DNA of 64,000 nucleotides from an uncultured Trueperaceae bacterium. GTDB lineage: Bacteria; Deinococcota; Deinococci; Deinococcales; Trueperaceae. The position numbers were made by a program, and so were the translations under genes. The stretch lies in the NCBI GenBank assembly GCA_963727505.1, contig CAVSGP010000015.1, positions 54,902-118,901 on the forward strand. The letters run 5' to 3'. Numbering within the stretch: the first letter of the stretch is position 1; each line of letters opens with the position of its first letter. The notes below the pieces were generated by a model. The model was not told the origin of the DNA and searched no databases. It saw only the letters and a program-made list of their open reading frames with translations. This document shows positions 2,230 through 4,308 of this stretch, piece by piece.

Positions 2230-4308
2230 ATGGAAGCTGGGGCGGAGAAGCGGGAGGCGGACGCCGCCGACCGTACCCAAGCGTCCCCTTCACCTCCGAG
2301 CGCAGGCGCACCCGCCATCATCAACCTCAAGCGACAGTTGTACCTGTTCCTGCTGCCGGCGCTCGCGGTCGTGACGCTGGTCACCGGGCTGCTCGGCGCG
2401 CCTGGCTCCTACGATCGCCTCGTCCTGCCCATGCTCAGCGTCGTCCTTCTGGTGACGTTGCTGTTGGTGTCGTTCCGATGGGTCCAGCCGCGTCACTTGG
2501 AAGCAGCCCTCTTCAGCGTGTTCGCGGTGACCTACCTGAGCAAGCTGGGGGCCAGCCTCGCCGCCGGCACCACCGACCAGATCTTCGTGTGGACGCCCCT
2601 GCTGTACGCGCTGGCGTTCCTGCTGTTCGAGCCGTTGCCGGCGCTGCTCACCTCGGCGGGCGTGCTCACCGCATCGCTCGTTGTGACGGTGGCCGTGGCA
2701 CATCTCGCGCCGATCCCGGTGCGCAGCTTGTTCGAGTTCTACCTCGCGAACGTCCTACTCGTCCAGATCATCTACGGCATGGCCCGGCTGCGGAGCAACG
2801 TCGCGTCCCTGCAGCGCGAGCTCCTGGACATGCAGCTGCTCGCCCATCAGGACATCCTGACGCGGCTCCCCAACCGCCGCGCGCTGCAGGACACCCTCGC
2901 CCAGGCGATCGCGTTGGCCGAACGCCGAATGCAGGGCGTGGCCGTCATCCTCTTCGACCTCGACGACTTCAAACGCGTCAACGACGAGCACGGCCACGAC
3001 GCCGGAGACCGCATCCTTCGCGATGTGGCGACCCGGGGCGAGAGCGTCCTGCGGCGCCCCGACACCCTGGGGCGCTGGGGCGGAGAGGAGTTCCTGGTCA
3101 TCGCGCCGGGGATCGACCTGCCCGGGGCCATGCGGGTGGCGGAGCGCCTGCGGGCGGCCCTCGGCTCCCACCCGTTCGGCGGCGTCGGAGCGGTGACGGC
3201 GAGCTACGGGGTGACGACCTACCACCCGGGCGACACCGCAGAGACGCTCCTGAAGCGCGCCGACGACGCGCTCTACCTCGCCAAGCAGAGCGGCAAGGAC
3301 CGGGTCGAGGCGCTGGTGCGCGAGAGGGTCCAGCACGTGGTGCTGCCCGTCCTCGCCCGTCCCTTCCCGCCATTGGAGCGCGACACCGACCAGCTCCAGC
3401 GCGACACCCTGACGTGGCTGAAGGACTTCGAGGTGGCCCCCTCCGAGACGCTCTACCGCTGGGTGGCGGCGGTGCAGCCCGGTTGGCTCGCCGGTCACAT
3501 GCAGCGCAGCAACGACGCCACCCGGCTGCAGATCGTGTCGGACTGGACGTTCTGGATGTTCCTGCACGACGACCACTGCGACACCAGCGCCGCCGGACGC
3601 CATCCCCGCTACCTGATCGACCTGCACCAACGCCTGCTCGGGGTTCTGGCCGGCGACGCGGCCGAGCCGCAGGACGGCGCCCTGGCGACGCTGCTGGCGG
3701 ACCTGCGCGATCGCCTGGCGGTCGCCGGCGGCGACGACGCCGTCCCGCGCTTCGCCGACGCCACCGATCGCTACTTCGCGGCCACCCGCTGGGAGGCGGC
3801 CAACCGCGCGAGCAACACCACGCCCGACCTGGAGACCTACGAGCGCATGCGCCTGCTGACCAGCGGCCTGCCCGTGCACACGGTCCTGCTGGAGACCCTC
3901 GACGACGTGCCGGTGTCCGACCAACCGCTGGCGAAGGCTCTCTATGCAGCGGCCGATCGCGCCGTGTGCTGGGCGAACGACATCTACTCGCTGAACAAGG
4001 AGGTCCAGGAGGAGGACGTCCACAACCTGGTGGTCGCCCTGCAGGCGAGCCACCACCTGGGCCTCGACGACGCCCTCGAGCGCGCCGCCCGCATGCACGA
4101 CGAGCAGGTCGCGCGCTACCAGCAGCTCCGCGCCACGGTCGACGAGCAGGAAGGCCCGGAGCGCGAGGCCCTGGAAACCATCGCGCAGGCGCTGGAGGCG
4201 CGCATGGGCGCCAACGTGGCCTGGTCCGAGCGCTGCAGCCGCTACCGGGCCGCCGTCACCGTGCGGGTGGAGCCGGAGACCGAGGCGGTTCCCAAGGCTT
4301 CCGACTGA
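2230..4308 (+). CDS. Membrane-anchored diguanylate cyclase (GGEEF) fused to a class I terpene cyclase domain
   Basis: N-terminal hydrophobic helices; DILTRLPNRR, DLDDFKRVND, RRPD-x5-GGEEF; then DDHCD, NDIYSLNKE and WSERCSRY; TAGACT 6 nt before the ATG. Confidence 0.9.
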   Translation: MEAGAEKREADAADRTQASPSPPSAGAPAIINLKRQLYLFLLPALAVVTLVTGLLGAPGSYDRLVLPMLSVVLLVTLLLVSFRWVQPRHLEAALFSVFAVTYLSKLGASLAAGTTDQIFVWTPLLYALAFLLFEPLPALLTSAGVLTASLVVTVAVAHLAPIPVRSLFEFYLANVLLVQIIYGMARLRSNVASLQRELLDMQLLAHQDILTRLPNRRALQDTLAQAIALAERRMQGVAVILFDLDDFKRVNDEHGHDAGDRILRDVATRGESVLRRPDTLGRWGGEEFLVIAPGIDLPGAMRVAERLRAALGSHPFGGVGAVTASYGVTTYHPGDTAETLLKRADDALYLAKQSGKDRVEALVRERVQHVVLPVLARPFPPLERDTDQLQRDTLTWLKDFEVAPSETLYRWVAAVQPGWLAGHMQRSNDATRLQIVSDWTFWMFLHDDHCDTSAAGRHPRYLIDLHQRLLGVLAGDAAEPQDGALATLLADLRDRLAVAGGDDAVPRFADATDRYFAATRWEAANRASNTTPDLETYERMRLLTSGLPVHTVLLETLDDVPVSDQPLAKALYAAADRAVCWANDIYSLNKEVQEEDVHNLVVALQASHHLGLDDALERAARMHDEQVARYQQLRATVDEQEGPEREALETIAQALEARMGANVAWSERCSRYRAAVTVRVEPETEAVPKASD

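Follow-up and report, generated by a model that had tools for sequence, protein, structure and literature searches.

The stretch analysed here, called the window throughout, comprises 64,000 nucleotides of contig CAVSGP010000015.1 from an uncultured Trueperaceae bacterium (assembly GCA_963727505.1), and at positions 2230-4308 of its plus strand it carries a gene in which a membrane diguanylate cyclase (DGC) is fused to a class I terpene cyclase. An earlier note on this DNA had described one uninterrupted open reading frame (ORF) of 692 amino acids (aa), and recomputation returned exactly this frame, with an ATG start and the stop codon included, inside a stop-to-stop frame of 695 aa. The next in-frame start is codon 37; because the first residues conserved in the family, LKR, lie at aa 33-35 and precede it, ATG 2230 was taken as the start. 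The G+C content of the region is about 72% and matches its surroundings. A Pfam search of the 692-aa protein recovered a GGDEF domain at aa 205-358 (E 5.2e-42) and a Terpene_syn_C_2 domain at aa 438-628 (E 6.6e-41). Both scores are far beyond chance, so that the proposed union of the two domains in one chain was confirmed with each of them at an E-value of about 1e-41.

A word-indexed search of 5.8 billion proteins, in which clusters were formed at 90% identity, yielded 31 clusters (P0001-P0031) in which PF00990 and PF19086 occur together. The lengths of these proteins range from 563 to 770 aa and their identities to the query from 36 to 91%; their 31-sequence alignment has a mean column identity of 45%. 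An AlphaFold2 model built on this family alignment reached a mean predicted local distance difference test score (pLDDT) of 86.6 and a predicted template modelling score (pTM) of 0.68. The motif positions of the earlier note were all recomputed and every one was exact: the DLDDFK metal site, the RRPD inhibitory site and GGEEF are present where it had placed them and conserved across the family, and the key residues of the cyclase motifs DDHCD, RMRLLTSG, NDIYSLNKE and W...RY are invariant or at least 90% conserved in the 31 sequences. The features of the gene are as follows.

2230-2310 (+): N-terminal tail (aa 1-27), variable, probably disordered and cytoplasmic; pLDDT below 50 for aa 1-26
2311-2718 (+): first five of six predicted transmembrane helices, MASE6-like (aa 28-163), from AlphaFold2 and hydropathy
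2719-2841 (+): sixth helix (aa 164-204), running unbroken as a signalling helix into GGDEF; model helix 164-206, E169 invariant
2842-3312 (+): GGDEF domain (aa 205-361); PF00990 at E 5.2e-42, TIGR00254
2956-2973 (+): DLDDFK (aa 243-248), with the first metal-binding Asp, D243, and K248; D243, D245, F247 and K248 invariant in 31 sequences
3052-3063 (+): RRPD (aa 275-278), RxxD inhibitory (I) site; R275 invariant, D278 in at least 90%
3079-3093 (+): GGEEF (aa 284-288), active-site (A-site) motif; all five residues invariant in 31 of 31
3313-3387 (+): junction without extra linker (aa 362-386), matching the native N-terminal segment of stand-alone cyclases
3388-4248 (+): class I terpene cyclase alpha-domain, sesquiterpene cyclase-like (aa 387-673); PF19086 at E 6.6e-41
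3568-3582 (+): DDHCD (aa 447-451), the Asp-rich DDxxD metal motif in its DDxCD form; D447, D448, C450 and D451 invariant
3844-3867 (+): RMRLLTSG (aa 539-546); R541, T544 and G546 invariant
3850-3852 (+): R541, candidate pyrophosphate-sensor Arg, 42 residues ahead of the NSE triad
3976-4002 (+): NDIYSLNKE (aa 583-591), NSE/DTE triad N583, S587 and E591; N583, D584, S587, L588, K590 and E591 invariant
4222-4245 (+): WSERCSRY (aa 665-672), C-terminal W...RY diphosphate-binding pair; W665, S666, R671 and Y672 each in at least 90%

Reality and distribution of the fusion

The earlier note had proposed read mapping as a check for a chimeric join. Logan contigs from four metagenome runs belonging to two studies cover the fusion gene without joints; they are short and none spans the whole gene, and they bridge the junction between the two halves. 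A contig of the second study runs from 3146 to 3691 without a single difference, and further contigs reach across 3207-3359 and 3330-3498. The note had also allowed that relatives might encode the domains separately, which is not so, the two being fused in 31 of 31 clusters and in 14 of 14 loci. All 14 loci fetched from other genomes, some of them on contigs of 1.4-4.6 Mb, encode a full-length fusion that aligns from aa ~12-33 to aa ~673-690 of the query (one only from aa 88), and in all 11 of the loci L006-L016 GGEEF and DDxCD lie in one frame. Although the source assembly consists of 15 contigs at about 72% G+C, where long spurious open frames are common, the recurrence of the fusion in these 14 loci and 31 protein clusters, the joint-free coverage of the junction by contigs of 4 runs from 2 studies, and the invariance of the junction residues P373, L375 and P378 leave practically no room for a chimeric assembly join or for two adjacent genes read through a missed stop or frameshift. 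The chimera hypothesis was thus rejected, and the fusion is a real single gene.

In an exhaustive phmmer search of 1.84 billion representatives at 50% identity, six full-length matches were found (P0008, P0011, P0015, P0121, P0026 and P0122), no protein scored between 360 and 224 bits, and the matches below this gap were GGDEF-only or cyclase-only proteins. None of 20 neighbour proteins that were scanned carried both domains, 16 having GGDEF only and 4 the cyclase only. Four proteins that phmmer matched in multiple stretches (P0123, P0124, P0128 and P0130) were considered as hidden fusions and rejected, since all are multi-GGDEF proteins. A search for longer proteins with the cyclase domain gave 13 matches, all from the same family, which is weak evidence that other fused forms are absent. 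P0273 (365 aa, 88% identity) was considered as an unfused cyclase and rejected; it lies on a 1216-bp contig and was treated as a truncated fragment of the fusion.

To place the family taxonomically, 364 Deinococcota genomes were searched, and the cyclase domain was matched at E <= 1e-10 in 21 of them: the window's own genome, 11 of 127 genomes in family f1, 9 of 125 in family f2 and none of 111 in four other families. Apart from one genome in which the gene is split over two contigs, the matches all fall within open frames of 667 aa or more. The Pfam model exceeded its cut-off in 22 of the 364 genomes, namely the same 21 and one with a stand-alone cyclase. P0026, which NCBI assigns to Deinococcus metalli, shares 99.85% identity with the gene at locus L024 (genus g39); therefore f2 is the Deinococcus family, and the window falls in a sister family of the same order. 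As far as these sequences reach, the fusion family appears to be small and restricted to two families of the window's order, Deinococcales. Two single genomes may be recorded here. In G316, the frame at C53:7671-8249 (315 aa, E 3.4e-31 to PF19086) is the sole stand-alone class I cyclase among the 364 genomes. In G330, which belongs to the window's genus, the fusion gene occurs twice with identical scores (C1:32919-33893 and C9:1168-2142), either through a recent duplication or through a redundant contig.

A tree of the cyclase domain was built from 30 fusion rows and 7 stand-alone rows. All of the fusion domains fell on one side of a branch, whose support (60/88) is weak, and the outgroup branches are long; a single fusion event would be compatible with this tree. 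P0008 was left out because its C-terminus is frameshifted. This metagenome relative, 91% identical to the query, departs from the family beyond about aa 643: its remaining Pro/Arg/Gly-rich tail has no match, and W...RY is lost. The tail looks like the product of a frameshift in the last ~50 codons, whether a sequencing error or a broken allele.

Database entries of the family bear names such as 'diguanylate cyclase (GGDEF)-like protein [Deinococcus metalli]' and 'terpene synthase family protein [Deinococcus sp.]'; one of the sources is a Deinococcales metagenome-assembled genome. Full-text literature searches, with most subscription journals outside their coverage and InterPro architectures not queried, found no description of a GGDEF-terpene cyclase fusion, and to our knowledge no protein with both domains has been characterised. 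The earlier claim that no characterised protein has this architecture therefore agrees with the literature searched and with the solved structures, in which no chain covers both domains. The architecture is undescribed in that literature but not unique to this genome, being present as 31 clusters in public databases. Thus, the fusion family is already in the databases but unremarked, while each of its halves belongs to a well-known family.

Domains of the protein and their known relatives

In the model, six long helices (aa 28-54, 61-81, 87-112, 116-132, 135-159 and 164-206) are joined by loops of 1-6 residues; there is no periplasmic domain, and the membrane domain is almost without extramembrane loops. 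Hydropathy analysis placed the hydrophobic stretches between aa 36 and 168. From the six predicted helices and the basic residues before helix 1 (positive-inside rule), both termini should be cytoplasmic. Mean pairwise identity is 0.18 in the tail (aa 1-27, with 0 of 27 columns invariant) and 0.40 in the membrane part. The MASE6 profile (PF20966) gave no match to the window protein (P0001) at E <= 1 and matched 2 of the 31 family members at E <= 0.01, one of which, P0010, exceeded the cut-off of 27.4 over aa 32-183 with 29.8 bits. We therefore call the membrane domain no more than MASE6-like; a literature search on MASE6 found nothing relevant.

The phmmer search aligned aa ~29-361 as a single stretch with many transmembrane GGDEF proteins of 346-423 aa and, by this sequence comparison, the membrane domain is homologous to theirs. 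The same genome holds paralogues with the transmembrane and GGDEF layout and no cyclase. In the ESM Atlas, which indexes clusters of at least 50 members, only GGDEF clusters and no cluster of the fusion were found; in the nearest of them 11-87% of the proteins carry MASE2 or MASE6. A further paralogue was observed in a Deinococcus genome, 1.8 kb downstream of the fusion (L022:6481-7575, minus strand). It is a 363-aa transmembrane GGDEF protein without a cyclase that clusters with the fusion proteins, and its architecture is likely to be ancestral to the N-terminal half of the fusion.

Over all 161 of its profile positions, PF00990 matched the GGDEF domain with 143.8 bits (cut-off 23.8), and TIGR00254 matched it with 143.4 bits (cut-off 37.4). 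Of the 157 columns of this domain 38 are invariant, and its mean pairwise identity is 0.58. The A-site and the metal- and GTP-binding residues are intact, N251, D252 and D260 are also invariant in the 31 sequences, and an RxxD site, which is present in many DGCs and not in all, precedes GGEEF by the canonical spacing of five residues. D243, K248 and the other DGC residues presumably have the catalytic and metal-binding roles established for PleD and WspR. Named DGC equivalogs of NCBIfam were not reached: SiaD scored 153.6 against 290 bits, PleD 141.3 against 474, AdrA 74.1 against 402 and GdpS 73.2 against 400, and DgcQ and DgcN were also below their cut-offs. In Foldseek comparisons, the helix and GGDEF part superposed on DgcB 6ttr (template modelling score, TM-score, of 0.85, target-normalised), PadC 5llw and SiaD 7e6g. 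The MASE6-GGDEF proteins, the MASE2-GGDEF proteins (AdrA/DgcC) and the coiled-coil GGDEF proteins (DgcB, PadC, SiaD) share with the fusion GGEEF, RxxD and a helix leading into GGDEF. However, the membrane DGCs compared end after GGDEF or continue into EAL, whereas the fusion continues into a cyclase.

The GGDEF domain ends at about aa 361, and the alignment with (+)-T-muurolol synthase of Roseiflexus castenholzii begins at aa 384 of the query, which corresponds to residue 19 of that enzyme. Therefore, the cyclase begins at its natural N-terminus, without any added linker between the domains. The mean pairwise identity across the junction is 0.34. PF19086 (Terpene_syn_C_2) was matched with 140.7 bits against a cut-off of 23.7 over profile positions 1-198 of 199, and in the cyclase domain 46 of 287 columns are invariant, with a mean pairwise identity of 0.50. 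Besides the residues listed above, W521, E522, N525 and R526 are invariant in the 31 sequences. The domain thus combines the profile and the all-alpha fold with DDxxD, the NSE/DTE triad, RY and a candidate sensor Arg. We take the role of R541 as sensor from work on selinadiene synthase, and those of the other cyclase residues from the selinadiene and pentalenene synthase literature. Judged by sequence, the cyclase domain appears to be a full class I enzyme, complete from its natural N-terminus.

(+)-T-muurolol synthase (9hqd, 9hqi, 9hr0 and 9hr3) is the closest characterised relative of the cyclase domain. Against the C-terminal 328 aa, phmmer aligned 9hqd at E 6.1e-47 (query 20-309 to chain 19-311), and Foldseek superposed the model on this synthase with a target-normalised TM-score of 0.89-0.90, a root mean square deviation of 2.1 A and 33% identity (9hr3_B, TM-score 0.89 over 302 columns). 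DDxCD, the WE..NR block, NDxxSxxKE and RY are common to both, and the synthase carries DDQCD at the position of DDHCD. The next matches were 10-epi-cubebol synthase 7zrn and the selinadiene, 1-epi-cubenol (9hq2) and avermitilol synthases; the two cubebol- and cubenol-forming enzymes are related bacterial sesquiterpene cyclases of the cadinane type. The earlier label of a mono- or sesquiterpene cyclase can accordingly be narrowed, because the closest relatives are sesquiterpene cyclases acting on farnesyl diphosphate (FPP), not monoterpene cyclases. Several sesquiterpene synthase equivalogs of NCBIfam matched at E 1e-18 to 1e-31, although below their cut-offs: the best, selina-4(15),7(11)-diene synthase, reached 108.2 against 450 bits, and the 4-epi-cubebol, isoafricanol, delta-cadinene and epi-isozizaene synthase models were all far from theirs.

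Known cyclases of this type are soluble, stand-alone proteins of ~310-340 aa, whereas the present one forms the C-terminal domain of a membrane-bound DGC. Among solved structures, none has a chain that includes both domains, and the highest query-normalised TM-score in Foldseek was 0.41. Fusions of a class I cyclase to a second catalytic domain exist in the prenyltransferase-cyclase fusions and in geosmin synthase, which has two cyclase domains and whose N-terminal domain (5dz2) is a distant structural match. In these proteins, however, both domains serve the same isoprenoid pathway, whereas the partner in the present fusion belongs to nucleotide signalling, and the two domains have no substrate in common and no product except pyrophosphate (PPi). 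Closer in concept are the family 2B encapsulins, in which a shell domain binding cyclic nucleotide monophosphates (cNMP) accompanies a terpene cyclase cargo, and cNMP-dependent regulation is suggested by its authors (PMC8346489). There, the receptor domain (PF00027) sits on a separate shell protein, whereas the fusion has a second-messenger synthase in the same chain. Staphylococcus aureus GdpS is reported to be a membrane GGDEF protein that recruits the lipid kinase DgkB (PMC11962490); its partner is there a separate protein, whereas the fusion is one chain with intact GGEEF and GTP-binding residues. Family 2B encapsulins and GdpS-like membrane GGDEF proteins are the nearest conceptual precedents. 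The Family 2 encapsulin cargo model NF041168 scored 76 bits against a cut-off of 1200 on the fusion, and among the six neighbouring ORFs scanned (window 217-9193) no encapsulin family was found.

Genomic surroundings

The genomic context was compared over 15 loci, among which kin are not independent. In the window, the fusion gene stands by itself: a melibiase-like gene diverges from it upstream (217-1695, minus strand) and a TIG-like gene converges on it from downstream (4559-6349, minus strand). Each of the three genomes of genus g13 (L019-L021) has a cytochrome P450 gene (464 aa, E 8.6e-88) in divergent orientation, 65-95 bp upstream of the fusion. P450s are classical partners of biosynthetic terpene cyclases, and that of g13 is a candidate tailoring enzyme for the terpene product. 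In four of the six Deinococcus loci fetched, a PAS-GGDEF-EAL gene (~900-1025 aa) is found upstream on the same strand, at 64-68 bp from the fusion in three of them and overlapping the longest-ORF call of the fusion in L024; given the shared strand and the short distance or overlap, co-transcription of the two genes is possible. GAF/PAS-GGDEF-EAL genes adjoin the fusion in two further loci. The P450 and EAL neighbours are two supporting observations, not statistics, and the context is consistent with both activities. In the window's own genome, polyprenyl synthases are encoded by 2 genes, and EAL and GGDEF are matched 10 and 21 times, respectively; therefore, substrate supply and a cyclic di-GMP (c-di-GMP) network are both present.

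A hexamer of the -10 type, TAGACT (TANNNT), lies 6 nucleotides (nt) before the ATG, and no Shine-Dalgarno-like purine run is present at 2218-2229, which would fit a leaderless transcript. Such transcripts are common in Deinococcus. Over window positions 1650-4700, a scan for sigma-70 consensus promoters gave 0 sites, and a terminator scan gave one terminator-like site, not above the level of shuffled sequences. The 530-bp intergenic region upstream of the fusion gene was observed to hold four short tandem arrays within 1682-1941.

1682-1736: 13-nt array TCGCTCACCGGCA x4.2, extending into the start of the minus-strand melibiase-like gene
1765-1819: 22-nt array x2.5
1816-1865: 14-nt array x3.6
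1888-1941: 13-nt array CCCGCCCCGCGAA x4.2

On the downstream side, window 4559-7500 (minus strand) holds two tandem, secreted-looking paralogues of ~600 aa with a weak IPT/TIG match. The upstream copy (~6136-7501) matches the downstream copy in three different reading frames, at identities of 45% (-3), 34% (-2) and 36% (-1), and is either frameshifted or internally repetitive.

Possible working of the fusion protein

Both domains look catalytically complete, the invariant columns including every residue known to us as catalytic, and neither resembles a decaying remnant. The best reading, to which we assign a probability of roughly 0.7, is that the protein is a bifunctional, membrane-anchored, signal-regulated enzyme with two outputs. 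In the working that we infer, including both activities, the substrate, the dimer, the topology and any cross-talk, the protein would dimerise through its membrane domain and helix in the manner of membrane DGCs. A signal sensed within the membrane and relayed by the sixth helix would set how the two GGDEF domains meet, and c-di-GMP would be formed from 2 GTP under product inhibition through the I site. The cyclase, held at the inner face of the membrane, would use a cluster of three Mg2+ ions to ionise a prenyl diphosphate, of which FPP is the likeliest, and the cyclic terpene would be released into the membrane or the surroundings. The fusion would ensure that the terpene and c-di-GMP outputs are co-expressed, co-localised and present in equal amounts. 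Since no free linker separates the two domains, they could also be coupled by direct allostery. An interface prediction between aa 200-362 (GGDEF) and aa 365-692 (cyclase), both used as cuts of an alignment and run without controls, scored 0.01 against a mark of 0.32, which speaks neither for nor against an interface. The chemistry of Mg2+ and PPi, to which the earlier note had pointed, is true of both enzyme families and is no evidence of coupling.

Several points weigh against the bifunctional enzyme. Intact motifs are no proof of turnover, and the activities are predicted from sequence for all members. Identity to characterised cyclases is only 33-38%; therefore, substrate and product are not assignable, and FPP is only a lead. 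The neighbours are uninformative in the window and in L017, its closest fetched relative (a melibiase-like gene and TIG-like genes), and no P450, prenyl synthase or EAL gene lies near the fusion there. The P450 neighbour is found in only 3 of the 15 loci, all in one genus, and was counted as one observation. EAL neighbours occur in 6 of the 15, and since GGDEF and EAL genes are numerous, some adjacency is expected by chance.

A tentative elaboration, which we hold to be rather unlikely, makes the protein a self-contained feedback device. Its own hydrophobic sesquiterpene would enter the membrane, be sensed by the loop-less six-helix domain and set the DGC through the helix; conversely, c-di-GMP bound at RxxD would lock the GGDEF domain against the cyclase, to which it would be rigidly joined, and so gate terpene output.

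A second possibility, to which we give little credence, is that the cyclase domain serves as an input that senses prenyl diphosphate (FPP or PPi). Closure on the ligand would move the GGDEF domain, so that c-di-GMP would report the isoprenoid pool, and any terpene would be incidental or slowly made. The N-terminal segment of class I cyclases helps to cap the active site, and in the fusion the GGDEF C-terminus runs straight into this segment with no free linker. Tailoring genes are also missing from most loci, 12 of 15 having no P450 within ~9 kb, and GGDEF is normally the output domain of signalling proteins. However, the catalytic residues, including the metal ligands, NSE and RY that ionisation needs, are conserved down to 36% identity, the adjacent P450 of one genus speaks for a real product, and input domains do not usually stand C-terminal to GGDEF.

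Just as improbable, in our estimate, is a protein in which the membrane and GGDEF part is an anchor and dimeriser that keeps the cyclase at the membrane, into which substrate and product partition, or a c-di-GMP receiver that switches the cyclase through RxxD, with little net c-di-GMP made. The RxxD site is conserved, so the domain should bind c-di-GMP, and in four Deinococcus loci the co-directional PAS-GGDEF-EAL gene upstream could supply or remove the messenger. The reported recruitment of DgkB to the membrane by GdpS offers a precedent (PMC11962490). Nevertheless, GGEEF and the GTP- and metal-binding residues are invariant, which sets them apart from those of degenerate receptor GGDEF domains, the GdpS model scores only 73 bits (cut-off 400), and the N-terminal half is closest to ordinary transmembrane GGDEF proteins of 346-423 aa. 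Both the sensing cyclase and the anchoring or receiving GGDEF part predict cross-domain effects.

The bifunctional enzyme would bear on several aspects of bacterial biology. A GGDEF domain followed by a catalytic domain other than EAL or HD-GYP is rare, and a membrane-tethered class I cyclase in bacteria bears on where hydrophobic products are released. The natural 'Rosetta-stone' fusion of an apparently active DGC with an apparently active sesquiterpene-type cyclase predicts a functional link between the two systems, for whose direct test a single recombinant protein and some point mutants would suffice. The change between motile and sessile life in bacteria is governed chiefly by c-di-GMP, and the reason why most bacteria make volatile terpenes, together with the tie to lifestyle, is largely an open question. 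If the feedback device were true, it would for the first time connect c-di-GMP signalling with terpenoid production directly and physically, and the decision on biofilm and lifestyle and the emission of volatile or membrane-active terpenes would be allosterically coupled in one polypeptide. Of the 22 sampled Deinococcota genomes in which a class I cyclase exceeds the Pfam cut-off, 21 owe it to the fusion, which therefore probably defines whatever sesquiterpenoid chemistry these radiation- and desiccation-tolerant bacteria possess.

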